From the UHGV virus genome UHGV-0246708: a stretch of 46,716 nucleotides of DNA, one strand, 5' to 3'. A program made the position numbers and the translations under genes. Under the pieces are notes generated by a model. That model was given only the letters and a program-made list of their open reading frames with translations. It had not been told where the DNA came from and made no database searches. The stretch comes from a virus. Shown in pieces: positions 24,065-46,716 of this stretch. How positions within the stretch are numbered: the first letter of the stretch is position 1; each line of letters starts with the position of its first letter.

Positions 24065-24066
24065 CT

Positions 24067-29632: not shown

Positions 29633-29634
29633 TA

Positions 29635-32600
29635 ATGGCAGATGCGTTACGTAGTTCAGTAATCGAACTCGATTGGAAAATAAATAATAGATCGTTAGAG
29701 CGTGCCAATGAAGAAACTGATAAAATTCTTGCTAAAGCTGCACGAATGGAAGGTACTTATCAAAATTCAGCAAAATCCATAGATGGCGCCACAACCTCTT
29801 TAAAAAGAAATAGTGAAGGTTTAAAACAAAATACAGATAAAGTTGTCCAGTTCGGAAATCGAGCAAAAGATTCTATGCAAAAGACAACAAACTCTGCTAA
29901 ACAAACTGAAAAACAAGTAAAAGATGTTGGAAGTCAGTTTGATAAAAGTAAAAATTCTGCAAGTGTTTTCGCTCAATCTAGTGCAACATCTCTAAAAGTA
30001 GTTGGAAAAGCTGCGAAGGGTGTACAAACAAGTATTGGTCGTATAGGTGACTACGCAACAAAAGCTTCAGATGTTACTTGGAGAGCTTTTACAAAGATAA
30101 GAAATGGTGCAATGATAGCTGGTGCAGGTATTGTAGCCATAGGTAAAAGCGCTTTTGATGCTGCTTCAGATACAAATGAAGCTCTAAATAAAGTAGAAGT
30201 AGCTTTCGGGGACAATAATAAAGAAGTGAAAAAATGGTCTAAAAATACTATTGATAGTATAGGTTTGGCACAAGGTACAGCGTTAGATTTAGCAGCTACA
30301 TATGGAGATATGTCAACGTCAATGGGTATTGGAACAAAAGAAGCGGCGAATATGTCTACTTCATTAGTTGACTTGGCAGGAGATCTTGCTTCATTTAAAA
30401 ATATAGGAATTGATCGTGTAAATACCGCATTAAATGGTGTGTTCACTGGTGAAACTGAGGCATTAAAAGGTTTGGGTATTGTTATGACTCAAACCAACTT
30501 GGAACAGTTTGCGATGGCCAGTGGAGCGTTGCAATCGTCAGTAGATAATTCTAAGGCTGCAAAGAATGCCATGGCAAGAGAAAAAGCTCAAGATCGTTTA
30601 AACAAAGCTATAAAAAAACATGGTGAAAATTCAATTGAAGCTAGAGATGCCCAGTTAAAATTAACTGAGGCAGAATCTAAAGGTGAAGAAGTCCAACAAG
30701 CGAAACTGGACTCCCTTAGTCAAGAAGAACTAGTTCGTTTGCGTTATAACTATGTAATGTCTAAGACAAAAAATGCTCATGGAGATTTCGCAAGAACAAG
30801 TGATCAAGCTGCAAATGCTTCAAGAGTTTTCAACGAATCATTAACAGAATTGAAAAGTAATATAGGTCAACACTTATTACCAATATTTACTCCATTAATA
30901 TTAAAGGCCACAAAATTTGTAAGAAAAGGAGATCAATTAAAAGAAAAAATAAATGATATAGGTCAACAAGTTGAGCCAACGGCAAAACAGGTAATGAAAC
31001 ACTTTGGACAAGCAAAAGATTATTTTGTTGATGAAATAATTCCTACAGCTAAAAAGGTAGGCAAAGCTATAGGACCTGGCATTGCAGAAGGCGCTAAAAA
31101 TATGTTTAACGTAATGGATAAAGGGTTTAAATATATTATTAAGCCAAGCATTCGTATACTCAAAGAATTTACTGATGAAAACCCTGTGGCTATGAAACAA
31201 GTTGGCAAATGGGCCACGTATGGTATTGGCGGTTTACTTGGGTTTAAGTTAGTAGGTAAACCGCTGTTGGGCGTCTCAAAGGGAATTTTAGGTATTATCG
31301 GAAAACTAGAAAAGCTTGGAAACACTGCTCAGAGAGAAGCTTTTAAAACAAGAAAGGCTTTAGAAGATGTTGATTCTGCAGCTCAAAAAGCTAGCACACC
31401 AACGCATACTACTGCTAGTCCAAATATACAGGAATCCTTACCTGTTGGATCTGTTGGCAAAATAGGAAAAGGCGCTAAACTTTTTGGCGGAGTGAGAAGG
31501 TTTGCCAAATCGGTTCCTTTATTGTCTTATATTTCTGCAGGTTTGACTTTAACTCAAATTAATAAAAATAATAAGTTTGAAAAAATTGGTGATTCGTTAG
31601 GTTCTATCGTTGGTGGAGCATTAGGCGCTAAAGCAGCAACATTAGCTGGCGCAAAATTAGGTGCCGTAGCCGGAACAACATTTGGTCCAATTGGCACTGT
31701 GATTGGAGGTATATTAGGAACAGCTGCTGGTTCGTCTTTTGGTTCAGTTTTAGGTAAAAAATTAAAAGAAAATTGGCCTGAAGTTTCTGCAATGATTGGA
31801 AAGCTTTGGGATACGTATAAAAAAGTGCCGTTTTATGGTCAAATTGCTCAAGCTGTAGAATCTGGGATTGTTCATGGTGCAAAATCTGGAAAAAGAATAA
31901 TTGAAGAAGTTAAAGAATTCTTTCAAAAGCCCTTTAATGCTAATAATGTAAAACCTGAAAAAGGTGTATCAAAGAATTCTGCAAAACGCGTTAATTCCTA
32001 CCTTAAAAATTACGATAAAATTATTAGCAAAGATACTGAAAGTAAGATTGCTGGACGTGTTCTTACTGATGAGGAAATAGCAGAAAGAAATAAAATTTTA
32101 AGCGATATGGAGAAACAAGTAACTGATCGCTTAGAAGGAAAGAAAAACAAATCTTATAAGAATATTGATAAATTATCAGAATTAGGTATTCTTAGCGATA
32201 AAGATGTTCAAAGTGCAAAAGCAGTAAGTACCGAATTAGCAACTTTCCGTAAAAGAGCATATTCAGATAATGTTAATGAATTAAAAAAATTAGAAAAAGA
32301 AGAACATGATGCTGGAATTCAAGCTGCTGAAAGATATACTGCTAGAATTAATGCTATTAAAGAAAAAGCACGTCTTGAAAATCGCGAATTATCTAAAAGT
32401 GATTTAGAAGAAATTGAATCAAATGAAAAAAGTGCTGCAGCAGCAACTCGAGTTGTACAAGAAGAGTATGCGCAAAAAAAAGCTGCTTTGAATGAAAACA
32501 TGAAAAGACAAGCTGTCGGCGCTCTTTCAGAATCTGCAAAAGAGCAAAAAATCATTATGGGTAATTTAAAAAATACATCTGGTGAGATTAGTGCACAGCA

Positions 32601-34803
32601 AGCTGCAGATATTGTTTCTGCTTCTTATAAAGCAAAAGAAGGAGCTATAAAATCTGCGAATGAAAAATATGCTGAAACTAAACGTATTTTAGATGAAGAA
32701 AGATATGTTAATGGAACAATTACTCAAGCACAATATGAAGAAGCTCTAAAAAAAGCACAGGAACAAAGAGATGGTGTAGTTTCACAAGCAGAGAAACAGC
32801 ATGAAGAAGTTGTGACTCAAGCGAAGAAACAAGCAGAAGGCCATTTAGAGCAAGTAGATTGGGAAACTGGTGAAACGTTGTCTAAATGGGATGTTTTCAA
32901 GAAAAGTTCTAAAAAGAAATTTAAAGAAATTTGGGATGGAACAGTTGAAGGAGCTAAAAGTTTTGGTAAGGCCTTTGGTGAAGCTATGGATAAAGTTGTG
33001 TCTGGAGCATTAGAAACTTGGGATAATTTTAAAACAGGACTCGCCGATAAAGTAAATGCTGTTACAGGTGGTATTAATGTCGTATTAGATTTCTTTAGTA
33101 TTCCTAAAATACCAGAATGGAAACCGAATACACCTAATTCTACTAAAAACAAGCATGGTCGCTCTTTTAGCACAGGATCTCGTGGCGCTTCATACAGCGG
33201 TCAAGCCTTAGTTGGAGAAGAAGGTGTTGAATTAGCATATAACAAGAGCACTTCCTCAATGCGTTTATTAGGATCAAATGGTCCAGAAGTTACTAATGTA
33301 ACATCGGGTGAGCGGATTTTAAACCATTCAGATACGAAAGCTGTATTAAATGGTGGTATGGGCCAAGGCACAGTATTACCAGGATTCCATAAAGGTAAAG
33401 GAAATGGGCTTTCTGATTTTGTTGATAGTGCTAAGGATTTCGGTGCAAATACTGTTGATAAATTAAAAGACTTTGGATCTAATGCAGTAGATAAAGCAAA
33501 AGAAGTAGGAACGAAAGCTATAGAAAAAACTAAAGATATAGCTGAAACGGCAAAAGATTGGCTATCAGACCCGATAGGAAAAGTGACTGGCTTATTTAAT
33601 AAGCATAACACTTATAAAAAGGGTAAAAACATCCAAGGTCTGGGACATGGAGTCATGAACAAACTAAAAGACACCAGTTCCGAGTGGGTAAAAAATAAAC
33701 TTGAGGCTTTCAAAGGATTTTTTGATTCCGAAGATGGTGGCGCTTTTGGTTCAGGGGCTTTTGCTCCACATTTTGGTTCACCATTTGTTCGCACTTCTGA
33801 TTACGGCAAGCGACCAGGTCTTTATGGTGATTTTCATACAGGAATTGATTACGCTGCTCCAATGGGAACGCCTATTCCTGCTCAACATCCTGGTTTGGTT
33901 GATTGGGTTCAATCTTCTTCCATTGGATTAGGTGAACATGTAGGTGTTAAAGTTGCTAATAACTTATGGGCAATGTACGGACATATGAGTCGAATCAGAG
34001 CTAAAAAAGGTGAACAAGTTAAAGCAGGTCAAATCGTCGGTGATGTAGGCTCTTCTGGTTGGTCAACTGGTCCTCATGTTCATTATGAACTTAGAAAAGG
34101 TGGACCAAATGGCCAACACGTAAACCCTGATACTTATGGTGGATCTGTTGGCGGTGTAGCGGTAGGGGCTGCAGGATGGGGTCCTCAAGTTAGAAAAGCT
34201 GCTAAATTAATGAATCAAGGGATAACAGATTCACAAGTGAATGGAATTTTGGCTCAAATCCAATTAGAATCTGGTGGAAATCAAAGTGCGATTCAGAGTC
34301 TATCCGTAGATGATATAAACGCAAGAACTGGTAATTTAGCAAGAGGTCTTCTGCAATACACACCAACTACTTTTGAAGGATTTAAAGTGCGTGGTTATGA
34401 AAATATTATGAATGGTTTCCATCAGTTGGTAGCTTTTTTTAATAACTCAAATTGGCAAAATGATATCCAGTATGGGCGTTCGGGTTGGACTCCCAATGGT
34501 CATAGATTAAGGGCTTATGCAAAGGGAGGCCGCCCTTCAAAAGGTGAAACAGTTTTAGTAGGAGAGAATGGACCAGAATTGTTCGAAGCAGATACAGCTG
34601 GAACTGTACATCCTCATGAAAAAACTAAAGCGCTCTTTAATCAAGGATCTCCATCTGTTAATTTTAGTCCTAATATTACTATCAACGTTGGGAATAATTC
34701 TGATAAATCTGTTGTTGGAGATATTAAAGAGGCTGTAAGACAAGCATTAGAAGATGAGTATGCAAAATTACTTAACATTCTAGGAACAGGAGAGGTTGTT
34801 TAA
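29635..34803 (+). CDS. Tail tape measure protein (1722 aa) with C-terminal M23 peptidase and lytic transglycosylase (SLT) domains.
   Basis: Long Ala/Lys/Glu-rich coiled coil and Gly-rich TM segments. M23: HTGIDYAAPMGTPI...HVHYEL. SLT: QIQLESGGNQSAIQS...GLLQYTP. Confidence 0.9.
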   Translation: MADALRSSVIELDWKINNRSLERANEETDKILAKAARMEGTYQNSAKSIDGATTSLKRNSEGLKQNTDKVVQFGNRAKDSMQKTTNSAKQTEKQVKDVGSQFDKSKNSASVFAQSSATSLKVVGKAAKGVQTSIGRIGDYATKASDVTWRAFTKIRNGAMIAGAGIVAIGKSAFDAASDTNEALNKVEVAFGDNNKEVKKWSKNTIDSIGLAQGTALDLAATYGDMSTSMGIGTKEAANMSTSLVDLAGDLASFKNIGIDRVNTALNGVFTGETEALKGLGIVMTQTNLEQFAMASGALQSSVDNSKAAKNAMAREKAQDRLNKAIKKHGENSIEARDAQLKLTEAESKGEEVQQAKLDSLSQEELVRLRYNYVMSKTKNAHGDFARTSDQAANASRVFNESLTELKSNIGQHLLPIFTPLILKATKFVRKGDQLKEKINDIGQQVEPTAKQVMKHFGQAKDYFVDEIIPTAKKVGKAIGPGIAEGAKNMFNVMDKGFKYIIKPSIRILKEFTDENPVAMKQVGKWATYGIGGLLGFKLVGKPLLGVSKGILGIIGKLEKLGNTAQREAFKTRKALEDVDSAAQKASTPTHTTASPNIQESLPVGSVGKIGKGAKLFGGVRRFAKSVPLLSYISAGLTLTQINKNNKFEKIGDSLGSIVGGALGAKAATLAGAKLGAVAGTTFGPIGTVIGGILGTAAGSSFGSVLGKKLKENWPEVSAMIGKLWDTYKKVPFYGQIAQAVESGIVHGAKSGKRIIEEVKEFFQKPFNANNVKPEKGVSKNSAKRVNSYLKNYDKIISKDTESKIAGRVLTDEEIAERNKILSDMEKQVTDRLEGKKNKSYKNIDKLSELGILSDKDVQSAKAVSTELATFRKRAYSDNVNELKKLEKEEHDAGIQAAERYTARINAIKEKARLENRELSKSDLEEIESNEKSAAAATRVVQEEYAQKKAALNENMKRQAVGALSESAKEQKIIMGNLKNTSGEISAQQAADIVSASYKAKEGAIKSANEKYAETKRILDEERYVNGTITQAQYEEALKKAQEQRDGVVSQAEKQHEEVVTQAKKQAEGHLEQVDWETGETLSKWDVFKKSSKKKFKEIWDGTVEGAKSFGKAFGEAMDKVVSGALETWDNFKTGLADKVNAVTGGINVVLDFFSIPKIPEWKPNTPNSTKNKHGRSFSTGSRGASYSGQALVGEEGVELAYNKSTSSMRLLGSNGPEVTNVTSGERILNHSDTKAVLNGGMGQGTVLPGFHKGKGNGLSDFVDSAKDFGANTVDKLKDFGSNAVDKAKEVGTKAIEKTKDIAETAKDWLSDPIGKVTGLFNKHNTYKKGKNIQGLGHGVMNKLKDTSSEWVKNKLEAFKGFFDSEDGGAFGSGAFAPHFGSPFVRTSDYGKRPGLYGDFHTGIDYAAPMGTPIPAQHPGLVDWVQSSSIGLGEHVGVKVANNLWAMYGHMSRIRAKKGEQVKAGQIVGDVGSSGWSTGPHVHYELRKGGPNGQHVNPDTYGGSVGGVAVGAAGWGPQVRKAAKLMNQGITDSQVNGILAQIQLESGGNQSAIQSLSVDDINARTGNLARGLLQYTPTTFEGFKVRGYENIMNGFHQLVAFFNNSNWQNDIQYGRSGWTPNGHRLRAYAKGGRPSKGETVLVGENGPELFEADTAGTVHPHEKTKALFNQGSPSVNFSPNITINVGNNSDKSVVGDIKEAVRQALEDEYAKLLNILGTGEVV

Positions 34804-35360
34804 TGGGATACATTCAGAGTGGTAAATCTAAAGTTGAGATTGTAAACGTCAGTGAGACTGTAACCAGTGCTGCTAATGTATCTCAATATCCTGTTGAATC
34901 AGGAGCACCAATCACTGACAATATGATGTATACAGGCGGTCCAGTCACAATTAGTGGCTGGATTCTCGCTAAAAATGGTAACGCTGCAGAGCAAGCTTAC
35001 AATACATTAGTTGCATGGCAAAAAGATGTTCGTTGGATTGTTTATCGAGGCAGATCATATTTTAAAAATGCAGTTATACAAGATATCAGTAAAGGGTATG
35101 ACACAGTGGAAAATGGTTTCACTATAACAATTACGTTACAACCCATACGTGTAGCTAAGACTATTTGGGAGAAGATTCCACAACCGCCAGTTGCAAAACA
35201 ACCTTCGAAACCAAGTAATGCGGTATATGTGACAGTTCAGCCAGGAAATACTTATTGGGGTTGGTGGCAACAATATGGTACGTCTATTCAGCAATTAAGA
35301 GATTGGAACAAGTGGCCAGATAGATTTATACCCATAGGCGCTCGTGCGCGTGTGAAATGA
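34803..35360 (+). CDS. XkdP-like tail protein with a C-terminal LysM domain.
   Basis: YVTVQPGNTYWGWWQQYGTSIQQLRDWNKW...IPIGARARV is LysM-like. Position directly after the TMP. Confidence 0.65.
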   Translation: MGYIQSGKSKVEIVNVSETVTSAANVSQYPVESGAPITDNMMYTGGPVTISGWILAKNGNAAEQAYNTLVAWQKDVRWIVYRGRSYFKNAVIQDISKGYDTVENGFTITITLQPIRVAKTIWEKIPQPPVAKQPSKPSNAVYVTVQPGNTYWGWWQQYGTSIQQLRDWNKWPDRFIPIGARARVK

Positions 35361-35369
35361 GGTGACTAA

Positions 35370-35732
35370 ATGTCTTTAAGAGCATATATTCCTATTGATA
35401 AATATTCATTACCTGAAAAATTCGAAATACCTTTAGGTAATACAAATTACATTTTTGAGGTGGACTATAATCAAACAGAAAAATTTTTTACTGTAGATCT
35501 ATATGACATAGATCATACACCGATAGCTATTGGTGAGCGTATGGTAATCGATGAAAAACTTTGGCAAGACATTGTAGATACTCGTTTACCTTCAGCAGAT
35601 TTGGTGCCGATGGATGAGTCGGGAGCTTCAAAAGAAATAACTTTTGAAAATTTTGGTATTCAGGTTTTCCTTTATATAGATGATTTACCTCCGAATTATA
35701 ATGTTCCAAGTTTGGAAAGGGAAGATAATTAA
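35370..35732 (+). CDS. Baseplate or tail protein (120 aa).
   Basis: Gene order. Confidence 0.45.
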   Translation: MSLRAYIPIDKYSLPEKFEIPLGNTNYIFEVDYNQTEKFFTVDLYDIDHTPIAIGERMVIDEKLWQDIVDTRLPSADLVPMDESGASKEITFENFGIQVFLYIDDLPPNYNVPSLEREDN

Positions 35733-36563
35733 ATGGGAAATACGCAATGGCAACGATTATTACAAATTGAAATACACGACAAGAATGGGAAGAATCGAGT
35801 TCTACTAAGAGCTGATTCAGGCAGGTTGGATCGGTTAGAAATTCACTTTACAGCACCTTTTTCTGATTCACCTAATCCATCTGAAGTGAGTGTGACAATA
35901 TACAATTTAAATAAAAAAAGTATTGATTTTATTAAGAAAGGAAATCCAGTCTATATCCACGCAGGATATGCAGGTACTTCAAATGGAGTGATTACGTCAG
36001 GAACGATAGCAGAAGTAAAACCCTCTGTTCTAAACGGAGTAGATAGAGCAACAACATTTACTTTTTTAGAAGGTAAAGATTACTCGGAACAAAAAGAAGT
36101 AAATATTACTTTTAATAATGGAACGGATGCTCATACTATTATAAATCGAGTTGCTAGGGAAGCAAATATTCCTTTGTCAGAAATTAAGTTAAAAAATAAT
36201 AAAATATATGGGTCTGGCTACACAGCTGATGGCCAAGCAATGATGGTTTTAGAAGAGATTTCCAAAGCTTGTGACACATCACTATATTTTAAAAGAGGTC
36301 AACTTGTAATTAAAAATTTTCGAGATGGAAATAAAGAGAGATACAGATTAAGTCCTGAAACGGGACTTATTAACCAACCGACAAAAGTTGAAAGTCATGA
36401 TTATACTGGTTGGTCTGTTGAGTGTCTTTTGCAACATAAAATCACTACAGGTACAGCAGTCTATATCGATTCAAAAAATGTAAAAGGAAATTTTTATGTA
36501 AAAAATGGCCAGCACTCCTATGATGGTAGTCGATTTGTTACAACGTGTGAGGTGGTAACCTAA
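35733..36563 (+). CDS. XkdQ-like baseplate hub or tail protein (276 aa).
   Basis: Gene order in a PBSX-like module. Confidence 0.5.
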   Translation: MGNTQWQRLLQIEIHDKNGKNRVLLRADSGRLDRLEIHFTAPFSDSPNPSEVSVTIYNLNKKSIDFIKKGNPVYIHAGYAGTSNGVITSGTIAEVKPSVLNGVDRATTFTFLEGKDYSEQKEVNITFNNGTDAHTIINRVAREANIPLSEIKLKNNKIYGSGYTADGQAMMVLEEISKACDTSLYFKRGQLVIKNFRDGNKERYRLSPETGLINQPTKVESHDYTGWSVECLLQHKITTGTAVYIDSKNVKGNFYVKNGQHSYDGSRFVTTCEVVT

Positions 36564-36895
36564 TGAAAGAAACTGACTTAGCTTTTTTTCGATCATTTAA
36601 AAATAGAATTTTAAAAGAAATTAATGTTATGCAACTATGTCGAGTTGTGACTGTAAAAGGTGCAAGAGCTGATGTTCAGCCAATGGCATTAAAATCAGAT
36701 GGAGGCAAAAGAGCATTAATACTAAACGCGTTGATCACTAAGCATTGTCAGTCTGATATCTCACAGGGAGCGGTTGTAGTAGTAGTTTTTTGTGATCGTG
36801 ACATAGATAATTATAGAAGTTCAGCTGATTATTCATTATCATCTGATAGAATGCATAGTCAAAATGACGCTGTTATTATGGGGGTGATTGCTTAA
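36563..36895 (+). CDS. XkdR-like small baseplate protein.
   Basis: Gene order. ATGA start overlap. Confidence 0.45.
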   Translation: MKETDLAFFRSFKNRILKEINVMQLCRVVTVKGARADVQPMALKSDGGKRALILNALITKHCQSDISQGAVVVVVFCDRDIDNYRSSADYSLSSDRMHSQNDAVIMGVIA

Positions 36896-37242
36896 TGAGG
36901 GATTTGAAAATAGTCAATGGAGACTTATCATTTATTGACTATGGAATTTTACTAGTTGAAGGAGATTTAGAACTTGCACAAAGTGTATTTATGATCTTAT
37001 CAATACGACTAGAAGAATTCAAATTAGATACATCCGTTGGTTTAGAAAGTGATAATATGTTTGGAAAAAATTACAATGAAGATTACTTGAAACAAGATAT
37101 TACAGAAGCGATTTTAGATCAAGAACCTAGAATTAATAGTATTGAAAATATAGAAATTGTAAGAAACAATAGACAATTGAATATTACAGTGGAGATGCTA
37201 TCAACATTAGGTGATGAAGTGGAGGTGGTAATACGTGCTTGA
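36895..37242 (+). CDS. XkdS-like (gp25/W-like) baseplate wedge protein.
   Basis: Gene order and size (115 aa). Confidence 0.45.
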   Translation: MRDLKIVNGDLSFIDYGILLVEGDLELAQSVFMILSIRLEEFKLDTSVGLESDNMFGKNYNEDYLKQDITEAILDQEPRINSIENIEIVRNNRQLNITVEMLSTLGDEVEVVIRA

Positions 37243-38389
37243 TGAAAATGGATTTAAAAGAAAAACATATGATGAAATACTCTATGATATGTCTGAAAAG
37301 GCAAAGGCCTTGTTTGGTTCGGATGTTAATGTTTCAGGACATTCTGTTCTGGGTATCATTATTCGTATCGTTGCATGGTTTTTATCTATATCTCATGAAC
37401 TAACTGAAAGAGTTTATTATAGTGGCTTCATAAGTCAAGCTACAGGGGTTTCATTGGATCGTTTAGGTGCGAATAGTGGTATCTATAGAAATCCAGCTAC
37501 AGTTGCAATGGTTGAGCTGGAGTTCTCAGGAAAACCTGGTTACATCATTAATGAAGGCGTACGTTTTTCAACAGAAAATAAAGTTATGTTTCAGATGATT
37601 GATATAGTCAAAATTGATGATAATGGATTTGGGAAAGGCCGCGCAATTTCTTTAGAAGAGAATGCTAGTTCAAACGTACCAGCTAATACTATTATAGTAC
37701 AAGTGGAACCTACTGAAGAAATATCATCTGTTAATAACCCTGCTAGGGCTGAGGGTGGGGCAGAACGTGAAACAGATAAAGCCTATCGCGACCGAATTGG
37801 TATTTCTGTTCGTGGGAATCCTGGACCGCCAATAAACGGAATTCTAACTGCTTTGCTAGAAGTTAGTGGGGTACGGACCGCTAGTGTTGTTGAAAATAAA
37901 ACAATGGAAACTGATTCGTATGGTAATCCACCCAAGTCGGTACATGTGCATATTTTAGGTGGAGTGAAAGACGATATTGGGCAGGCAATTTTTAAAAGTG
38001 TTGCCGCTGGGATTGACACTGTTGGTAATCAGGAAGTTGAAGTAAAAGACTTAGGAGGATTTAGTCATATTGTTAAATTTGATTATGCAAAATCTGTTCC
38101 TATTTTTGTGAATATTTCTATTCAAGTAGATTCAAAATTTGAAAAAAACGGACAAGAAGAAATAAAAGTTATAGTAAATAATTACATTAACAATCTGACT
38201 ATGGGTGAAGTAGTCAGATTTTCTTATATTTATCCATTAATTTATCAAATACCAGGCGTTGTTGTCGCTGATGTAAAAATTGGATTATCTACTGAAACTA
38301 CCGAAGTCAAAGACATTAATCTGAATCCAAATGAGTCAGCTGAATGTAAAACAGAGAATGTGGTGATTACTAGTGACCAAAAAGCTTAG
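37235..38389 (+). CDS. Baseplate J-like protein (XkdT-like).
   Basis: 384 aa. Position before the XkdU-like gene and the fiber gene. Confidence 0.55.
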   Translation: MLDENGFKRKTYDEILYDMSEKAKALFGSDVNVSGHSVLGIIIRIVAWFLSISHELTERVYYSGFISQATGVSLDRLGANSGIYRNPATVAMVELEFSGKPGYIINEGVRFSTENKVMFQMIDIVKIDDNGFGKGRAISLEENASSNVPANTIIVQVEPTEEISSVNNPARAEGGAERETDKAYRDRIGISVRGNPGPPINGILTALLEVSGVRTASVVENKTMETDSYGNPPKSVHVHILGGVKDDIGQAIFKSVAAGIDTVGNQEVEVKDLGGFSHIVKFDYAKSVPIFVNISIQVDSKFEKNGQEEIKVIVNNYINNLTMGEVVRFSYIYPLIYQIPGVVVADVKIGLSTETTEVKDINLNPNESAECKTENVVITSDQKA

Positions 38390-39002
38390 AGATTATTTAC
38401 CAGATCTATTCAATCGCGAAAATTCAAATATTTCAAAACTTCTTGAAATTATTGAGTTTGAAATTAAAGACTTGACTGATTTGCTGAATAAAGTAGCAAA
38501 CTGGCGATCGATAGATGAAGCACGAGGGAAAGGACTAGATGAATTAGGTGCTAATGTTGGACAAGCGAGAGGAAAAACGACTGATGAAATATATAGAGTA
38601 TTGATTCGTGGAAAGGTAGCTAGAAATACAAGCGATGGATCAATCGACAAAATGTTACATGCAATTGCGACATCTTTAAATTGTCATCCTAGTGATATCC
38701 ATATTATATCAGCTAATGAGACGGTAGATGAAAAAGAACCTGCTTGTGTAATCATAAAAAAAGCTCCTCTTGACTACTTGAATAGTTCGGGTCTAAGTAT
38801 TAGTCAATTTTTACAAATTGTCGAGAGTATCAGTGCTGGAGGCATTAGAGTAGCCTACGTTAATTTGGAGGGAACTTTTTCATTTTCAAGTACGACTGAT
38901 ATAGAGATTAGTAAAGAAGGATTCGCTGATATTGATGGTAATATCGGAGGAACTTTGGGAGGAGTCTTTATTCCAGAAAATGATTATAAACTGCCGCTGT
39001 AG
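38373..39002 (+). CDS. XkdU-like tail protein (209 aa).
   Basis: Gene order. Confidence 0.5.
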   Translation: MTKKLRDYLPDLFNRENSNISKLLEIIEFEIKDLTDLLNKVANWRSIDEARGKGLDELGANVGQARGKTTDEIYRVLIRGKVARNTSDGSIDKMLHAIATSLNCHPSDIHIISANETVDEKEPACVIIKKAPLDYLNSSGLSISQFLQIVESISAGGIRVAYVNLEGTFSFSSTTDIEISKEGFADIDGNIGGTLGGVFIPENDYKLPL

Positions 39003-39014
39003 AAAGAGAGGAGA

Positions 39015-40664
39015 ATGCAAATGAAATTTACAAAGGAATTGCCTGTTTGGTTAGCACCAGGTATTAAACCACCCGAAAGCTTAACTAGCGATGGTTGGAA
39101 AGCTTCACAAAAACCACCAGCTGATTATTTTAATTGGTTCTTTAGCAGAACCCACGGAGCTTTAAAAGAATTGCAAGATAGTGCTACACATATTGAAGAT
39201 TTTAATGCCCATAAATCAAATATAAGTAATCCTCATGCGGTAACAGCTACTCAGGTTGGTTTAGGAAATGTACTAAATCAAAAGCAGGCAACTAAATCTG
39301 AGTTTGATGCGCATGATCAAGATAACATTAGACATATTACAGATGTAGAAAGAAATAGCTGGAATGGAAAAGCAGAAAAAAATCACACCCAACCATGGTC
39401 AACAATTACAGGTATTCCAGATTCAACAATTACCAAAAAAGGGATCGTGAAGCTGACTGACTCTGTTACGAGCACGGATATATTGACAGCAGCAACTCCA
39501 AATTCAGTTAAACAAGTCAATGATAATGCTAATGCTGCAATGGCTAGTGCTTCTTCTGTAAATGATAACCTGACGAGCCATAAGATTGATTATAAAAACC
39601 CTCATAAAGTTACTTCTGCACAAGTTGGTTCATATAGTAAAACAGAAACAGATAACCTATTCATCAATAAATCAGATGCTGAAAACGGCTTATTGGTAAG
39701 AAAAAGTATTGAAATAACAGACTTAAATAATGCTAAAGAACCTGGCATATACTCGATTCCAGCTACAGGAGTTGAAAACAAGCCGCTACCAAACTCTGGA
39801 AGTTTGTTCGTTAGTAAAGACCCAGGAGGAGTCAGACAACTATTTCAAACGGAAAGGACTATCGTTATTCGTCAATTTGGTGGTATTCCTTCAAAGTGGA
39901 CGGATTGGAAAGAAGTAGCATTTAAACCGAATGTTGTGAATTTAACTGAACCTCAACGTATAGGCGGAACTAAAGAATTTGCGGATATTCCATTAGTAAA
40001 TGGTACAGAAATAGCTTTGAAAGAAGATATATTTTTTTATCAAAAGACTGGGCTTGATGAAGTCCAAGCAGACTACAAAGCTTCTTTTAGGGAAGAAACA
40101 AATATGTTTCTTACACGAGAAGGAAACAGAGTTGATGCTTATTTACGAGTTAATGTGGTGGATGTCACCAAACTAAAAACTGCTTTTGTTCCGATTTTTC
40201 AAATTCCTGATGGATTTAAAATTGATCTTAGCATGAGGGAGAGTTTCTGGAATGTTCCATTGACAGTAACTCAATACACCTACCCACAAGGTAACTATGG
40301 TGCATTATATGAGATGAACGTGAAAGGAATCCGATTCGGAAGTGACCGTCTTGGTAATCATTATCTATACGGAAGTTGGCATACTAATGATCCAAAACCA
40401 GATGCTAAATTTAAGTATATGCTTTATGTGAACTTATATAATTTGTCTGAGGGAAGAGATTTTGTTTCAGGTTCATACAAAGGAGAAATTTATTATGTAG
40501 CTGTTGAAATTGATGGACAGTTAGGAGAAAAATTAAAAGTATCTGATGGTTTTTATAAGTATACGGTAGGAACTAAAATAAATAAGGCTTCTCAAAATGC
40601 ATGGGTGATTGGTTATGATCAGTCAGGAACAGAAGTAACTAGAAGCAAAATCAAAATATTATAG
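39015..40664 (+). CDS. Tail fiber / receptor-binding protein.
   Basis: Conserved fiber N-terminus LPVWLAPGIKPPESLTSDGWKASQKPPADYFNWFF. Repeated NPHxVTxxQVG and tail-fibre repeat IVKLTDSVTSTDILTAATPNSVKQV. Confidence 0.75.
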   Translation: MQMKFTKELPVWLAPGIKPPESLTSDGWKASQKPPADYFNWFFSRTHGALKELQDSATHIEDFNAHKSNISNPHAVTATQVGLGNVLNQKQATKSEFDAHDQDNIRHITDVERNSWNGKAEKNHTQPWSTITGIPDSTITKKGIVKLTDSVTSTDILTAATPNSVKQVNDNANAAMASASSVNDNLTSHKIDYKNPHKVTSAQVGSYSKTETDNLFINKSDAENGLLVRKSIEITDLNNAKEPGIYSIPATGVENKPLPNSGSLFVSKDPGGVRQLFQTERTIVIRQFGGIPSKWTDWKEVAFKPNVVNLTEPQRIGGTKEFADIPLVNGTEIALKEDIFFYQKTGLDEVQADYKASFREETNMFLTREGNRVDAYLRVNVVDVTKLKTAFVPIFQIPDGFKIDLSMRESFWNVPLTVTQYTYPQGNYGALYEMNVKGIRFGSDRLGNHYLYGSWHTNDPKPDAKFKYMLYVNLYNLSEGRDFVSGSYKGEIYYVAVEIDGQLGEKLKVSDGFYKYTVGTKINKASQNAWVIGYDQSGTEVTRSKIKIL

Positions 40665-40685
40665 AGAGTAAGGAGAAAACAAAAA

Positions 40686-41120
40686 ATGAAAAAAATTTGG
40701 AAATATGGACGTACTGGAGGGCAAGAGCTACAGGTATCTGATGATTTCCCAATGCAAGTTCCTTTTACAGATGTAGTTCCTTTACCAACCGTCAATTTAG
40801 AAGACCAATTTTTTATTCCATCTGAGAATAGATGGAAAGAAATTTCTAACCAATTAGATAAGGAAAATTTGGATAATTTAAGTATATTATATAAAAACCT
40901 TGAAAAGGATAATGAATTATTAAAAGCTAAAGCAGATAATCTTGCTCTTCTAAATTCTAAGCTAATGCTCAATGACCTTAATATCCAAAAAGAAAATACC
41001 CTCTTGAAAGCTAAAGCAAATGACCTAGCTGAGATTGGTGCGAAATCAATGTTGTCCATTGTACAAATTACTGGGGAAATAGGGAAAATTAATGAGCAAC
41101 TTAAAGGAGGTGCTAAATAA
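40686..41120 (+). CDS. Coiled-coil tail-fiber-associated protein (XkdW position).
   Basis: Repeating LLKAKA(D/N)(N/D)LA heptads. Confidence 0.5.
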   Translation: MKKIWKYGRTGGQELQVSDDFPMQVPFTDVVPLPTVNLEDQFFIPSENRWKEISNQLDKENLDNLSILYKNLEKDNELLKAKADNLALLNSKLMLNDLNIQKENTLLKAKANDLAEIGAKSMLSIVQITGEIGKINEQLKGGAK

Positions 41121-41248
41121 TGTTTACTTTTGATGATGTTAAATTGATGTATGATTGGGGTCTTTATACTGATGATGAAGTAAAGCTATTTGTACCTACA
41201 TGCATTACAGAAGAGGAGTTTAACGAGATTGTAGGGAAAGAAGGTTAG
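41120..41248 (+). CDS. XkdX-family small protein (42 aa). Not in the track.
   Basis: MFTFDDVKLMYDWGLYTDDEVKLFVPTCITEEEFNEIVGKEG matches the XkdX consensus. RBS AAAGGAGGTG. TAATG overlap. Confidence 0.6.
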   Translation: MFTFDDVKLMYDWGLYTDDEVKLFVPTCITEEEFNEIVGKEG

Positions 41249-41252
41249 TCAG

Positions 41253-41609
41253 TTGGAGTTAGAGCAAAAAGTAAAAGAACATGAAAAACGTCTTGGTGAT
41301 CACGATAGAGAAATAGGTCGTTTAGATAGACGAACGATGACTTTACAAGAGCAACTTAATGCAAATTTAGTTAGATTAGATGAGTCAAATAAATTCTTAC
41401 GTGAACAAAATATGAAGCAAATGGAGCAAAATAGTGAAATTCTAAATGCTATTTTGAATAGAAACAGTGAAGCGGATGAAAGAAAAGACGAACTAAAAAA
41501 ACTTAACACTGAAAATATATGGAAAGTAATACTAGCTATATTTGTTTCTAGCGGAGCAATAACTATTTTATTTAACTGGTTAAGCACATTTTTAGGAGGC
41601 GCTAAATGA
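41253..41609 (+). CDS. XhlA-like lysis-associated protein (coiled coil plus C-terminal TM helix). TTG start.
   Basis: N-terminal coiled coil. C-terminal TM segment IWKVILAIFVSSGAITILFNWL. Position before the holin. Confidence 0.6.
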   Translation: MELEQKVKEHEKRLGDHDREIGRLDRRTMTLQEQLNANLVRLDESNKFLREQNMKQMEQNSEILNAILNRNSEADERKDELKKLNTENIWKVILAIFVSSGAITILFNWLSTFLGGAK

Positions 41610-41803
41610 AAATTAATTGGAAACATAAATTCACAAGCAGAAAGTTTTGGGCTGCAGTGACAGGAGTAATCATTGCTTTGTTAGCAGTTTTCAATGTAGA
41701 TGATTTAACATCTGAAAAAGTGGTCACTTTAGTAGCAGCTATTGGCTTATTAGCTGCATATATTGTTGGCGAAGGATTTGTTGATTCAAATAGAGATAAT
41801 TAA
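41606..41803 (+). CDS. Holin (65 aa, two TM segments).
   Basis: KFWAAVTGVIIALLAVF and VVTLVAAIGLLAAYIVG. Charged C-terminus. Confidence 0.7.
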   Translation: MKINWKHKFTSRKFWAAVTGVIIALLAVFNVDDLTSEKVVTLVAAIGLLAAYIVGEGFVDSNRDN

Positions 41804-41810
41804 GAAGTCA

Positions 41811-41848
41811 TTCTAAAATGGCTTCTTTTTTTATATAAAAAATTAAGA
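41811..41848 (+). terminator. Hairpin plus T-tract between the holin and the endolysin.
   Basis: GAAGTCA-ttctaaaa-TGGCTTC followed by TTTTTTTATAT. Confidence 0.4.
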
Positions 41849-41861
41849 AAGAGGTTTTAAA

Positions 41862-42968
41862 ATGAAAAAGTTTAGTAAGTTTTTATTATCATTAGTTGTA
41901 GTTACAGGATTATTGTTACCAACTGCCGCAGATGCTTATCAAGTGGAACAAGATCCTATCGATTTTGGCGGATATTTTCCAGGTTATGCGACTAACGAAT
42001 TAATTGTCTTGCACGAGTCAGGAAATGGGAACAACGTTGGCCTAAACAGTCTAGACAATGAAACGGCATATATGAAACGCAACTGGACGAGCGCTTATGT
42101 TTCATATTTTGTCGGTTCTGGTGGTCGCGTGAAGCAGTTAGCGCCAGTTGGCCAGATTCAATGGGGAGCGGGAGCGACAGCCAATGCAAAAGCATATGCA
42201 CAGATCGAACTTGCTCGAACGAATAATAAAGAAACATTCAAGAAAGACTATGCTGCCTATGTCAATTTGATTCGTGATTTAGCAACACAAATTGGTGCAA
42301 CATTTGACTTGGATGATGGAACAGGATATGGAATTGTGACGCATGATTGGATCACAAAAAATTGGTGGGGGGATCATACAGATCCATACGGATATTTAGC
42401 ACAGTGGGGAATTAGCAAAGCACAACTAGCACAAGATTTACAAACTGGACTTCCAGAAGATGGTAGCGAAGTTATTGTAAATCCTGGCAAGCCTAATAAA
42501 CCAAAATATAAAGTCGGTCAGCACGTTCGCTTCACAACAATCTACAAAAATCCAGATGCGCCAATTTCTCAGCATATCAATGCAAACACATTGTGGACTC
42601 AAGTTGGAACCATTACACAAAAAATAAATGGCCGTAAAAATCTATATCGCATCGAAAACAGCGGCAAACTTTTAGGTTATGCAAACGATGGTGATATTGC
42701 GGAGCTTTGGGAAAACAGCAAACCAACACCAGCTAAAACATTCACTATTGGTGTAAATGAAGGAATTGTGTTGCGTACTGGATCACCTAGTTTGTATGCG
42801 CCAGTTTACGGCGTGTGGCCAAAAGGTGCACAATTTAGATATGATTCGGTTCGTGTGGCCGATGGCTATGTTTGGTTAGGGGGTTCTGATTCAAACGGAA
42901 CTCGGATTTGTATCCCAGTTGGCCCAAATGATGGCAACCCAGACAATACTTGGGGTACTGGATATTAA
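41862..42968 (+). CDS. Endolysin: Sec signal peptide, N-acetylmuramoyl-L-alanine amidase (Amidase_2/PGRP) and C-terminal SH3b-like binding repeats.
   Basis: Signal peptide MKKFSKFLLSLVVVTGLLLPTAADA|YQ. Amidase_2 motifs VLHESGN...THDWITKNWWGDHTDP. Two SH3_5-like repeats. Confidence 0.85.
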   Translation: MKKFSKFLLSLVVVTGLLLPTAADAYQVEQDPIDFGGYFPGYATNELIVLHESGNGNNVGLNSLDNETAYMKRNWTSAYVSYFVGSGGRVKQLAPVGQIQWGAGATANAKAYAQIELARTNNKETFKKDYAAYVNLIRDLATQIGATFDLDDGTGYGIVTHDWITKNWWGDHTDPYGYLAQWGISKAQLAQDLQTGLPEDGSEVIVNPGKPNKPKYKVGQHVRFTTIYKNPDAPISQHINANTLWTQVGTITQKINGRKNLYRIENSGKLLGYANDGDIAELWENSKPTPAKTFTIGVNEGIVLRTGSPSLYAPVYGVWPKGAQFRYDSVRVADGYVWLGGSDSNGTRICIPVGPNDGNPDNTWGTGY

Positions 42969-43061
42969 GAACAGCTTGATTTTCTGTAACCCTTAGTTTA
43001 GAATAAACTTACACTTATTAAATTTCTCTTGAGTCGCCTTCCCCAAGGTGGCTCTTTTTAA

Positions 43062-43135
43062 GGACCATTAGCTCAGTCGGTTAGAGCAAACGGCTCATAA
43101 CCGTTCGGTCGATGGTTCGAATCCGTCGTGGTCCA
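43062..43135 (+). tRNA. tRNA with anticodon CAT (Met elongator or Ile2).
   Basis: Full cloverleaf: acceptor GGACCAT/GTGGTCC, D-arm GCTC-AGTCGGTTA-GAGC, anticodon arm AACGG-CTCATAA-CCGTT, T-arm GATGG-TTCGAAT-CCGTC. No encoded CCA. Confidence 0.8.
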
Positions 43136-43143
43136 TAAAATTA

Positions 43144-43172
43144 TTGATCTGCGAACGAGTGTTTGTTATAAT
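43144..43172 (+). promoter_or_regulatory. Strong sigma-A-type promoter TTGATC-17 bp-TATAAT with an extended -10 TGn.
   Basis: Seen directly at about 43144-43149 (-35) and 43164-43172 (TGtTATAAT). Confidence 0.55.
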
Positions 43173-43206
43173 CGAAGTGTAATCCTCATATGATTATATC
43201 TGCTAA

Positions 43207-43246
43207 AGAAGTTACGAAAATGCTTGTTTTCGTAACTTCTTTTTGG
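43207..43246 (+). terminator. Leader hairpin or intrinsic terminator between the promoter and the first gene of the two-gene operon. It may also define a roughly 65-nt small RNA.
   Basis: Perfect 14-bp stem AGAAGTTACGAAAA/TTTTCGTAACTTCT with loop TGCTTG, followed by TTTTTGG. It is flanked by a 12-nt inverted repeat TTATATCTGCTA (about 43194) and TAGCAGATATAA (about 43258) that abuts the start codon. Confidence 0.5.
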
Positions 43247-43270
43247 TTTAATTAAAATAGCAGATATAAA

Positions 43271-43675
43271 ATGGAAAAGTGGGGATATTCATTGTTGAAA
43301 TTTGATAATTATCCAGAGAGTTGCCCTCCAGCTGAGGCTATCCCATTTGATGGAGTTTTTTTCAGACTATGTAAGGGTGAAAACTTTTGCGAAGAAGATT
43401 TTCTTACTCATTTTGAAGCTGGGAAAAGTTTCCCAGATAAAAAACTGTGTGAAGCTATGGCATTATCATTTTTTGATAGCTATGATCATGCAGAAAAATT
43501 AAAAAAAAGATTTAGAAAAAAATTTGCAACATGTTCTATCAAACCTGTTGCAATTATTGAAGATTATGGAGTAGGAATTTTTGAAGAGAATTCAGGGCAT
43601 CTTAATTTATGGGAGCACAGGAACGTTGATATTTTTGCTGATTTAATGAAGGAGGATAAAGGAAAAGATGAATAA
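43271..43675 (+). CDS. Hypothetical Cys-rich protein (134 aa), first gene of an accessory two-gene operon. No Shine-Dalgarno sequence.
   Basis: ORF track entry. Cysteines at C18, C34, C40, C60, C88. The upstream region is AT-rich with no GGAGG. Its stop overlaps the start of the next gene. Confidence 0.6.
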   Translation: MEKWGYSLLKFDNYPESCPPAEAIPFDGVFFRLCKGENFCEEDFLTHFEAGKSFPDKKLCEAMALSFFDSYDHAEKLKKRFRKKFATCSIKPVAIIEDYGVGIFEENSGHLNLWEHRNVDIFADLMKEDKGKDE

Positions 43676-44831
43676 TCTAATATTTTCAGACATGGAATAT
43701 ATTTTCGTTTTTGACTATTATGATACTCCTTTATTTTTCATTTCTCGAAGTCGGAAAAATAATAATTACTATTTATTCTACTCTATAAATGATGACGTTT
43801 ATTTTTACAGTGAGCTATCTGCTTCGGATATTAATTACTTATTTAGTAATCCAAATGGATACGACATTCTTCATTACCTTAAAAAGAAGTCTAAATTAAA
43901 TTTTGTTATGGTAAATAATAATTCTTTTGATATCTATAGCTTAGCGGAATATACAAATATATTTAATGAAGATATTAGCGAAGCACTACCTTTGGAAAAG
44001 TATCCAATAGAGTTTGATTTGGTTCATAAGCTTGATTTTGAAGATATAAGAATTAATTATAAAAGCTATTTTCCAAATGTATATGCTAATGATCAACTGA
44101 CTCTACGAATAAAAAATAAAGAGAATAGTAGCTCGTTAAATATTGATATTGTTTATAGTGCTTTAGAATTTATAAGAAGTACATGGCAAGATTTAAGTCA
44201 AAGGCATGCAGAATTAGGAACTCAGAAGAAACTTTTGATGTCCGCACCTTCAAGAGGGTCGCTAAAACTTGATTTCGAATTAGAAAAGGATCAACAAACG
44301 GGATTATTTACTGATGAGGCCTCTTTTTCTGAACTAATTGACTTCGTAGATAATTTAGCCTATATACCAATGTACGATGAAGAAGAACTGTTTAATGAAA
44401 GAAAGCTCATTGAAGAAACTGCTAAGCTGTATAAAGTTATTGAAGAAAATGATTTATCAATTGATTTAATTTCCAATCAAGTTAAGTTGAGTAATATAAA
44501 AAAATCAGAAAAGATCAAAAGAAATTTAGATGTTATGTTGTCTAGTGTGAATGATCAAATAAATGAAAGAAACGTGTTAACTGAAGAAATAGAGATAGAA
44601 GGAGAGGTCTTGGCTGCAAATAAAAGTAAGAACTATTTTAAGATTAGGTCTTTAGCACATGGAGATATCTCAGGTACATTTGAAAGAACGCTATTTAAAC
44701 AAATAAAGACCTCTGAAGTACAAATTACGATTTCAAAAAGTATTCATGCTTATATTACTAAAGAGCAAATTACTGATATCGATACCAACGAAACGAAAAT
44801 AAAGTATACATTAAATTCTTTTACTCAATAA
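43668..44831 (+). CDS. Hypothetical protein (387 aa), second gene of the accessory operon. Very AT-rich, with an Asn/Tyr/Phe-rich N-terminal region.
   Basis: Overlaps the upstream gene by 8 nt. GGAGGA RBS. No recognised catalytic motif. A terminator follows. Confidence 0.65.
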   Translation: MNNLIFSDMEYIFVFDYYDTPLFFISRSRKNNNYYLFYSINDDVYFYSELSASDINYLFSNPNGYDILHYLKKKSKLNFVMVNNNSFDIYSLAEYTNIFNEDISEALPLEKYPIEFDLVHKLDFEDIRINYKSYFPNVYANDQLTLRIKNKENSSSLNIDIVYSALEFIRSTWQDLSQRHAELGTQKKLLMSAPSRGSLKLDFELEKDQQTGLFTDEASFSELIDFVDNLAYIPMYDEEELFNERKLIEETAKLYKVIEENDLSIDLISNQVKLSNIKKSEKIKRNLDVMLSSVNDQINERNVLTEEIEIEGEVLAANKSKNYFKIRSLAHGDISGTFERTLFKQIKTSEVQITISKSIHAYITKEQITDIDTNETKIKYTLNSFTQ

Positions 44832-44836
44832 CGTAT

Positions 44837-44886
44837 TTAAGACCCTAGCCTACTATAAGCTACGGTCTTTTATTTTTATCAGAATT
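44837..44886 (+). terminator. Rho-independent terminator of the accessory operon.
   Basis: AAGACC-CTAGC...GCTAC-GGTCTT stem followed by TTTATTTTTAT. Confidence 0.5.
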
Positions 44887-44934
44887 AAACAGTCATTAAC
44901 GAAAGTCTTGCTCCCAGATAAGAGTGAGCATTTT

Positions 44935-45183
44935 TTATGCACTAATCAAAGATTTCCTTACAAGCATTTTCTCAATGACAAGTTGATTTCGTTTATTCAA
45001 GTGACCATAGACCGCTAATTCAGATCGTTCAGGTAACATTAGTAGCGTATTTGCCAGCTCGTTTTTCGAGACGATACAGTTTATAGTTTCGTCCTGTGTT
45101 ACTAATGAGAATCGAACTAGCATTTTTGGGTACATACTTAACATTCTAATCTTATCAACTACTCCTACATAATTAGTTTTCAT
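44935..45183 (-). CDS. Hypothetical 82-aa protein with its own promoter and a strong RBS. It lies adjacent to attP on the side that becomes the attR end after integration.
   Basis: RBS AGGAGGG 7 nt before the ATG. Upstream promoter TAGACA-18-TATAAT on the minus strand. No recognisable domain. Confidence 0.55.
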   Translation of the reverse strand: MKTNYVGVVDKIRMLSMYPKMLVRFSLVTQDETINCIVSKNELANTLLMLPERSELAVYGHLNKRNQLVIEKMLVRKSLISA

Positions 45184-45249
45184 ACTATCGCCCTCCTAGT
45201 AATATAATTATACCGAATGTATGTTCGTGTTGTCTATAGAAAAATTTTG

Positions 45250-45570
45250 TAAATCTATGAAATGATAAAAACAAATGGTGATACATTTGGTGATACATCT
45301 GAAATATCTATGAAAAAAATGTAAATAGTGAAAGACTTCAATAACTAATAAATCATTGATATATAAGTAATCGGAAAGAATGAAATCTATGGAAATGTTT
45401 TATCTAACAAACGCAACATGTTCGCTTTATTAGGTAAACCAGGTTTTGAAGAATTAGCAAAAGATTTAAATGCACGCCTATAAAACAGCATTCTAAGATA
45501 ATTTTTAGCTTTGCGGTGATACAAAGATGTTTGCTTTGAAATATTTTTGGTGATACAAATGGTGATACAT
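45250..45570. repeat. attP-like region. Five direct copies of (T)GGTGATACA, two at about 45276 and 45288 and three at about 45514, 45548 and 45560, are candidate integrase arm-type sites. There are also three copies of ATCTATG(A/G)AA and an AACATGTT-centred palindrome at about 45411-45424 that is a candidate core.
   Basis: Repeats seen directly in the sequence. The region lies immediately 3' of int between convergent genes, as expected for attP. Confidence 0.5.
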
Positions 45571-45580
45571 TTATAAATAA

Positions 45581-45612
45581 AATCAGGTAACGTTTTAGTT
45601 ACCTGATTTTTT
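45581..45612 (-). terminator. Hairpin ATCAGGTAAC-GTTTTA-GTTACCTGAT overlapping the int stop and followed by a T run. It is the int terminator and reads bidirectionally.
   Basis: Perfect 10-bp inverted repeat seen in the sequence. Confidence 0.5.
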
Positions 45613-46716
45613 GTGTTGCATTTGATATAATTCAAGTTTATTTACAGCTCGTTCTTTAACTTCAGCAGATACGTGTGCATATATCTCAGTTGTTTTAACG
45701 TTCTTGTGACCAAGCATGTCTTTAATATCCTCAAGTGGAACTCCTGCTTGTCGTAAACGAGCAGCATTAGTATGGCGACCGTCATGAATTCTGATTTTTG
45801 GTAAGTTTGCTTTTTGAATGATTCGGTGCCAAGCCGTGTCAACGGATCGTTGACGAATAGGTAAGCCAACGTTTTTTCCTCTATGATTGATAAATAAAAA
45901 ATCTTGGTTTGAGTTAGTCATAGGTAATACATTACTTGTAAGATCATAATTAATACCATAGAGTTCTAAGACGGAGTTTCTCACTCTGTTTGTCATTTTT
46001 AGAGACCTTTTACCAGCATCAGTTTTAACGTCATCTAAAATTACTTGACCAGGTCGTTCTTTTCTATACAAACGCTGCTTGTCAAATGTGAGAATATTAT
46101 CTCTAAAATCAAAGTTAAACCATCGTAAGGCCATTACTTCACCTTTTCTTAATCCTAAATCAAAAATAATTAAAAAAAATACATACCACATATACTCATC
46201 AAAATTTCTTGCAGTGTCGAGGAACAGATTTTCCTGCTCTAAAGTATAGAATTCTAGTTTCTTTTCTTTATTAGTTTTTTCTTTTACTTTATCTAATGGA
46301 AACTCTACTAAGTAGGTAGGATTACTTTTTACAAAACCTAATTTTTGTGCCTTTTTGAAAGCATTGGACAAGGCGGCATTTACAATTTTTACTGTGTTAT
46401 AACTGAGCCCGTTTTTATTTTTTCCTAATTCTTTATTCGTAAATAAGCTATTAATAAATTTTTGGTGATCTGCAGGTTTATATTTATTTAATTGATAATT
46501 TCCTATATATGGATCAATATACATACGGATAGCATCTCGATAGACAATTCGTGATCCTTCCTTAACATTGTTTTTATACTCATTGATCCATATATTCATA
46601 AATTTTGAAATAGTCATTTTTTGTGGGTTTTCTTTAACGAATTCTTCAGATGCAATTTGTCCTTCAACTATTTTTGCAGCCTTCAAAGCTTCCTTATGAC
46701 TTCTAAAACCTCTCTT
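45595..46716 (-). CDS. int: Tyrosine integrase, C-terminal 373 codons. The ORF is open to the window edge and continues in frame at 105..1.
   Basis: Catalytic signature R...HDGRHT (HxxR)...LGH...TTEIYAHV (catalytic Tyr). The frame stays open through 46716 (..KRGFRSHKEALKAAK..). Codon boundaries at both window ends match. Confidence 0.9.
   Translation of the reverse strand, partial: KRGFRSHKEALKAAKIVEGQIASEEFVKENPQKMTISKFMNIWINEYKNNVKEGSRIVYRDAIRMYIDPYIGNYQLNKYKPADHQKFINSLFTNKELGKNKNGLSYNTVKIVNAALSNAFKKAQKLGFVKSNPTYLVEFPLDKVKEKTNKEKKLEFYTLEQENLFLDTARNFDEYMWYVFFLIIFDLGLRKGEVMALRWFNFDFRDNILTFDKQRLYRKERPGQVILDDVKTDAGKRSLKMTNRVRNSVLELYGINYDLTSNVLPMTNSNQDFLFINHRGKNVGLPIRQRSVDTAWHRIIQKANLPKIRIHDGRHTNAARLRQAGVPLEDIKDMLGHKNVKTTEIYAHVSAEVKERAVNKLELYQMQHKKSGN

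Follow-up and report, generated by a model that had tools for sequence, protein, structure and literature searches.

The closest described system is prophage pp3 of Enterococcus faecalis V583. Matos et al. 2013 (PLoS Genet 9:e1003539; PMC3675006) reported pp3 as a 47.3-kb prophage, ef1417-ef1489, inserted in the 3' end of ef1416. Its att core was experimentally confirmed as ACAAACGCAACATGTTCGCTTTATTAGGTAAACCAGG (Table 2 of PMC3675006). Spontaneous excision, attP circles, replication and plaques were described for pp3 with PCR-based methods, and the circles were found to replicate at least 10-fold above the excision site. Packaged pp3 DNA was undetected by FIGE/Southern (PMC3675006).

Two further systems are relevant at the level of the integrase and its sites. 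The lambda-type heterobivalent integrases have a three-domain layout, in which an N-terminal arm-binding domain is followed by a core-binding domain and a catalytic domain with the residues R-K-H-R-H-Y. In lambda attP, repeated arm sites flank the core, and these sites are laid out as P1, P2 and P'1-3. The second system is the integrase of Tn1549, which comes from a conjugative transposon and not from a phage. It is the closest solved structure by sequence to the integrase described here (PDB 6EMY/6EMZ/6EN0) and was aligned with its core-binding and catalytic domains over aa 83-387 (E 3e-11). It differs from the phage integrase in that the identity is low and the deposited chains gave no alignment to the arm domain.

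The window, which is the whole 46,716-bp stretch of DNA that was analyzed, was compared with these systems. It is very probably the complete genome of a temperate, contractile-tailed E. faecalis phage in its excised form, linearized within int and belonging to the V583 pp3 lineage, where the lineage assignment rests on the att core and the integration site and the highest similarity measured was to the prophages in CP036249.1 and LR962356.1 (99.97-100% identity). The window shares with pp3 the integration site (the 3' end of ef1416, which is pgi) and an att core identical to 45407-45443. The integrase adjoins att in both, the sizes are 47.3 kb for pp3 and 46.7 kb for the window, and both have the same module set with no annotated excisionase. 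V583 prophage pp3 is the right comparator for this phage.

Integrase gene at the two ends of the window

The integrase gene (int) lies across both ends of the window. The features in its neighborhood are as follows.

105..386, minus strand: small ORF, 93 aa in public annotations, phrog_2240, whose stop overlaps the int start (TAATG)
1..105, minus strand: 5' part of int, codons 1-35, first half of the Arm-DNA-bind_4 domain
45595..46716, minus strand: 3' part of int, codons 36-408 and stop, encoding the rest of the arm-binding domain followed by the SAM-like core-binding and catalytic domains
45579..45610: terminator-like element across the int stop codon, a perfect 13-bp hairpin with T/A runs

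On the minus strand, the frame that starts with the ATG at 105-103 reaches base 1 after exactly 35 codons and encodes the peptide MASIKSYKLKNGQDRWEYFVSNGRSNGTGRQQKIH. An AGGAG ribosome-binding site and an in-frame stop are located upstream of this ATG, and the small ORF at 105..386 and int are probably co-translated. At the right end of the window, 373 codons can be read on the minus strand between 46716 and 45598 before the frame closes with a TAA at 45597-45595. When both ends were concatenated, a 1227-nt CDS encoding a 408-aa protein was obtained, without stop or frameshift. The preliminary description of this DNA had proposed that the integrase halves join in frame across the ends, and the uninterrupted translation bears this out; its coordinates, peptide sequences and length for the integrase were all correct on recheck. 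The in-frame join is far beyond chance.

The domain structure of the joined protein was determined with Pfam. Arm-DNA-bind_4 (PF14657), an AP2-like arm-binding domain, was found at aa 15-58 with 43 bits versus a cutoff of 22.3, and it crosses the join at aa 35/36. This match verified the AP2-like arm-binding N-terminus that had been read earlier from the sequence. Phage_int_SAM_3 was found at aa 70-126 and Phage_integrase (PF00589) at aa 193-386, the latter with 81.4 bits versus a Pfam gathering threshold of 27.1. The catalytic residues R225, K266, H346, R349, H372 and Y381 were invariant in 12 aligned sequences, and the active-site residues of the joined integrase all align with the active site of the Tn1549 integrase (6EMY). 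The three-domain layout is thereby shared with the lambda-type integrases; the arm domain here is of the AP2-like PF14657 family, whereas that of lambda is of another family.

The homologues of the joined protein are continuous at the join. A cluster of contiguous 408-aa E. faecalis integrases (181 members) matched it with 98% identity over 100% of its length. A gap at the join was seen in none of the 11 homologues aligned, with identities down to 40%, and the same alignment showed conservation just past the join, where K36 and G38 hardly vary and F39 is invariant. The nearest integrases in deposited phage genomes are those of the Lacticaseibacillus/Lactobacillus phages phiFSW, iLp84 and PLE3 and of Enterococcus phage EG-TP1, with 41-51% identity over 98-99% of the length; the hosts and the phage backbones differ. 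Among arm-binding tyrosine integrases, the 408-aa protein is thus an ordinary one.

The adjacency of the two ends was further verified in independent genomes. Window bases 46716 and 1 are directly adjacent in 14 independent E. faecalis records, comprising one draft genome (L001), three IMG/VR prophage contigs (L002-L004) and ten chromosomes or large scaffolds (L031-L040). In CP036249.1 (L038, junction 11143/11144), window 45407-46716 is matched with 100% identity and window 1-11143 with 99.991%, and no base is gained or lost at the junction. The 3' part of int (45595..46716) is found with 100% nucleotide identity in L031, L034 and L036-L039. The exact 40-mer over the join was absent from IMG/VR; the related prophage contigs there carry SNPs at the join, and the contiguity was therefore shown by alignment instead.

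These data also bear on the possibility that the two ends are unrelated or degenerate integrase fragments, for example from a prophage remnant cut from a chromosome, which came into phase by accident. Agreement of phase alone would occur with a chance of 1 in 3. However, the halves are contiguous in the 14 independent records at up to 100% nucleotide identity, the Pfam arm domain spans the join, the window carries attP and not attL/attR flanks, and its length equals that of the integrated prophage unit, as described below. The probability of such an accident is therefore negligible. A truncated or pseudogenized integrase and a chromosomal prophage fragment were both ruled out by the contiguous genomic copies together with the att and unit-length comparison.

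Attachment sites and integration at pgi

The attachment region is located between the lysis side of the genome and the 3' end of int. Its features, and a candidate excision factor encoded elsewhere in the window, are listed below.

45407..45483, plus strand: attP common core, a 77-bp copy of the host pgi 3' end, including the TAA stop at 45481-45483
45407..45443, plus strand: crossover segment, 37 bp identical to the published V583 pp3 att core ACAAACGCAACATGTTCGCTTTATTAGGTAAACCAGG
45277-45285 and 45289-45297, plus strand: two candidate arm-type Int sites GGTGATACA, lysis-side arm, 110-130 bp from the core
45515-45523, 45549-45557 and 45561-45569, plus strand: three candidate arm-type Int sites GGTGATACA, int-side arm, 32-86 bp from the core
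3101..3331, plus strand: candidate excisionase/directionality factor, 76 aa, HTH_17 / PF12728 (E 4e-8, 33.8 bits versus a cutoff of 27)

The 77-bp core is common to attP, attL, attR and the empty attB sites, and it equals the last 24 complete codons and the stop of host pgi. At attL, the integrated copies show int followed by host pgi (PGI family, PF00342), and the homology to the window ends at 45407. At attR, the lysis-side homology extends up to 45483, beyond which lie host genes (NrdI flavodoxin, V-type ATPase). Since the phage supplies its own copy of the pgi end, pgi is intact after integration. The position of the core in the end of a protein-coding gene and its length of 77 bp differ from the short intergenic core of lambda-type systems.

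The distribution of the core was surveyed in several collections. A metagenome scan with part of the core gave 11 empty attB contigs, with pgi, the core and the host downstream flank, as well as 2-3 attR-type contigs and 1 attL-type contig. A 33-mer of the att core occurs in many E. faecalis chromosomes as well as in 17 metagenome contigs. The core was not found in the species-representative genome collection with a 41-mer or a 33-mer, both within window 45408-45481; this miss is probably due to a SNP or to masking in the representative genome.

The point of strand exchange was narrowed by the alleles within the core. In CP036249.1, attR carries host alleles at 45444, 45465 and 45477, and attL carries phage alleles; the host SNPs in attR occur only to the right of 45443. 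The restriction of these host SNPs to attR indicates that strand exchange takes place inside the 37-bp segment, and it accounts for a published core of 37 bp and not 77 bp. The shared att block is 77 bp here versus 37 bp for pp3 because the hosts considered here lack the SNPs that shorten it in other strains. Int would recombine the 77-bp attP core with an identical attB at the pgi 3' end, and the exchange would fall within the first 37 bp. The att geometry and the SNP pattern fit an integrase that acts on its own att sites by site-specific exchange within 45407-45443.

The sites that flank the core were also analyzed. The sequence GGTGATACA occurs in 5 copies in the 46.7-kb window, all of them in attP and in one orientation, where 0.19 would be expected by chance. 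The offsets of the three int-side copies are unchanged in 3/3 attL loci, the divergent L001 included, and those of the two lysis-side copies in 5/5 attR loci. GGTGATACA was absent from the attB contigs. Since the integrase has an arm-binding domain, these repeats are the obvious candidates for arm-type sites, and all five are probably bound by the integrase in this way. In the proposed mechanism, the N-terminal domain of Int would bind the five repeats as in a lambda-type intasome. Lambda attP likewise has repeated arm sites flanking its core, and the candidate sites here number 2 + 3. The product of 3101-3331 is the only candidate directionality factor; its role as Xis is predicted from the HTH_17 match, and this small protein may serve as the excision factor.

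The window has both phage arms around the core, which is the attP arrangement and not the integrated one. This arrangement exists only after excision or in an equivalent representation, which indicates that the window is in the excised configuration. The core in the window carries phage alleles throughout (G45444, T45465 and C45477).

An alternative origin of the circle was considered here, in which it would be an artefact of the assembly graph: an integrated prophage of a sequenced lysogen whose loop was closed through the 37-77-bp attL/attR repeats and then opened at a random point. Such a loop would have the sequence of a real excised circle without requiring any free phage DNA. At their length (77 bp shared, of which 37 bp are exact in lysogens of the CP036249.1 type), the repeats can collapse at common k-mer sizes, integrated copies in complete chromosomes match the window with 99.97-100% identity, and a second record with the attP arrangement was not found in IMG/VR or in the metagenome scan. 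The phage alleles throughout the core are nevertheless the exact product of an attL x attR excision inside 45407-45443, which a path through the graph could also match. Moreover, pp3 excises spontaneously and its circles replicate at least 10-fold above the excision site (PMC3675006), so that genuine attP reads are expected in any lysogen culture. Taken together, an assembly artefact is improbable.

One genome unit with its modules and cargo

The window and the integrated prophage agree in length. Measured between equivalent core positions of attL and attR, the prophage in CP036249.1 spans 46,715 bp versus 46,716 bp for the window, which indicates that the window is one whole phage unit. Colinear integrated copies were found as follows: window 1-11143 in CP036249.1 (L038, 99.991%), 11005-32250 in LR962356.1 (L045, 99.991%, with one 1-bp gap), 33668-45483 in CP036249.1 (L029, 99.975%) and 45407-46716 in CP036249.1 (L038, 100%). 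These colinear blocks span the whole window except 32251-33667, which is inside the uninterrupted 1722-aa tape-measure ORF. A terminal direct repeat was not present in the window, and internal direct repeats of at least 40 nt were likewise not found. Without such repeats and without terminal redundancy, the window is one unit and not a concatemer.

The annotation found all phage modules in the window, as the preliminary description had expected. The features that outline the unit are given below.

1..46716: one complete pp3-like temperate phage unit, a circular permutation opened inside int, by colinearity and unit length
547..2372: lysogeny switch adjoining int, made of the following four genes
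547-1143, minus strand: DUF4352 protein
1171-1635, minus strand: ImmA-like M78 peptidase
1652-1960, minus strand: cI-like HTH repressor
2103-2372, plus strand: cro-like HTH
17448..19599, plus strand: packaging genes TerS and TerL, Terminase_2 with N-terminal HTH and Terminase_6N/6C
41862..42968, plus strand: endolysin (Amidase_2 and SH3_5), the last late gene, followed by tRNA-Met, two cargo ORFs and attP

The replication and recombination module contains an SbcC-like protein, RecT, a DnaD-like loader and RecU. A metallo-beta-lactamase-fold hydrolase is encoded within this module at 7360-8061 (plus strand); the Pfam run gave only Lactamase_B_2 for it, and in precomputed public annotations its orthologues show a weak match to Anti-Pycsar Apyc1 (PF23023). 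The regulation module contains XtrA and sigma-r4-like regulators together with Ant. The XtrA and sigma-70 region-4 regulators, at 13732-14605, are PBSX-like. They are followed by a tRNA-Lys(UUU) at 14764-14850 (plus strand), which is unusually long with 85-87 nt.

A variable, low-GC (29%) moron spot is located just upstream of terS at 15242-17405. It holds Ant and two ORFs, 15986-16552 (minus strand) and 16614-17405, both without any family. Other strains, among L041, L043, L044 and L046, have a ParB_N-N6_N4 methyltransferase at this spot instead. In L044, an IS (Transposase_mut) is inserted at about window position 16460.

The packaging and head module consists of TerS, TerL, the portal, a Mu F-like head protein, a DUF2213 head protein, which PHROGs labels as head maturation protease, and the major capsid protein. 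The Mu F / SPP1 gp7-like protein at 21006-22250 (plus strand) has a C-terminal ADP-ribosyltransferase exoenzyme/toxin domain (PF03496, aa 264-410, E 8e-8). From this domain match, it is a candidate for a virion-delivered ART.

The tail module consists of the terminator, sheath, tube, tape measure, baseplate hub, sheath initiator, Baseplate_J and fiber. The contractile-tail genes lie at window 27615-29066 and 35733-38389 and include the sheath (phrog_205, E 2e-104), tube, sheath initiator, Baseplate_J and baseplate hub. Within the 1722-aa tape measure (29635-34803, plus strand), a Peptidase_M23 / lysin-like domain is embedded near aa 1383-1646. By gene content, the phage is myovirus-like, with a contractile, PBSX/XkdK-like tail module.

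Phages A118, TP901-1 and Sfi21 are siphoviruses. They had been named earlier as comparators for the integrase, which proved not apt, since the tail is contractile here and the TerL of TP901-1 is only 25% identical. A likeness of the phage as a whole to A118, TP901-1 or Sfi21 was rejected on the sheath and baseplate genes. Among related terminases, that of the lactococcal ul36/phiSMQ86 type has 73.5% nucleotide identity.

No holin was assigned in the window; the endolysin is directly preceded by two small ORFs, 41253-41609 and 41606-41803, for which Pfam returned no match. A tRNA-Met(CAU) at 43062-43135 (plus strand) comes right after the endolysin. Two overlapping cargo ORFs, 43271-43675 and 43668-44831 (plus strand; 134 and 387 aa), are located between this tRNA and attP and gave no Pfam or PHROG match. 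The sole PADLOC hit among the two was a weak match of the 134-aa ORF to PD-T4-10_A (E 7.6e-5). The corresponding place in related phages is occupied by a TIR protein (EFC-1) or an Abi gene (IME197). The two cargo ORFs before attP could be an uncharacterized defense moron.

Physical state of the DNA and meaning of the contig

The adjacency of the ends, the attP configuration, the unit length and the colinearity together support the earlier suggestion that the window is a circular or circularly permuted complete phage genome. The circular map would have been linearized at an arbitrary point between int codons 35 and 36. Since a circle was written as a line and opened inside int, the split integrase is an artefact of representation and not a biological feature. 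Taken by itself, the sequence is equally expected from a circular replicative form after excision, from permuted virion DNA packaged by the headful mechanism and from an assembler loop through the att repeats.

Headful (pac) packaging would make the virion DNA circularly permuted, and such DNA would assemble as a circle. Terminase_6N/6C, an SF6-like TerS and a Mu F-like gene form a set typical of headful packagers. The TerL of this phage belongs to Terminase_6N/6C, the T4-type family. The N-terminal HTH of TerS matches the small terminase G1P of the pac phage SF6 (3ZQP, E 1.8e-5), and the gene for the Mu F / SPP1 gp7-like head protein comes after the portal gene. The terminase families and the Mu F-like protein thus lean to headful packaging.

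The same genes bear on a second reading of the circular map, in which the virions contain linear DNA with unique cohesive (cos) ends and the circle arises by cos ligation or represents the replicative form. The sequence does not define any termini, and TerL gave no sequence match in PDB. As packaged pp3 DNA was undetected by FIGE/Southern in the work of Matos et al. (PMC3675006), the ends of pp3 are uncharacterized. The T4-type family of TerL, the SF6-like HTH of TerS and the position of the gp7-like gene after the portal gene all speak against cos ends, which are therefore considered unlikely, and headful packaging of a permuted genome is tentatively proposed for the virion DNA.

The split gene is an ordinary result, and the pp3-type prophage and its att biology are already known. 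For practical use, the window is best handled as a circular complete genome and rotated prior to annotation, with terS or attP as possible starting points. When unrotated, the integrase is called as two fragments or missed, and the phage may be misjudged as integrase-less or incomplete. Through the link to V583 pp3, E. faecalis is identified as the host and the 3' end of pgi as the integration site, and the exact attP core and the crossover interval are defined.

The pp3-type prophage is present in very many E. faecalis genomes, and single window proteins were listed in 197-745 blocks of the genomic collection searched. In a separate phage collection of 50,697 records, the share of the window covered by any one phage genome was at most 6% at the nucleotide level. 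Since no deposited phage genome exceeds this coverage, the free form is under-represented among isolate phage records. It may tentatively be proposed that the contig is the free, replicating or packaged form of this widespread pp3-type phage and that the 2 + 3 GGTGATACA repeats are a previously undescribed arm-site code for PF14657 arm domains. If so, the free form would lack an isolate genome in the 50,697-record collection, where the nucleotide coverage is at most 6%, and the five predicted arm-type sites would offer a testable prediction for the integrase of this phage.
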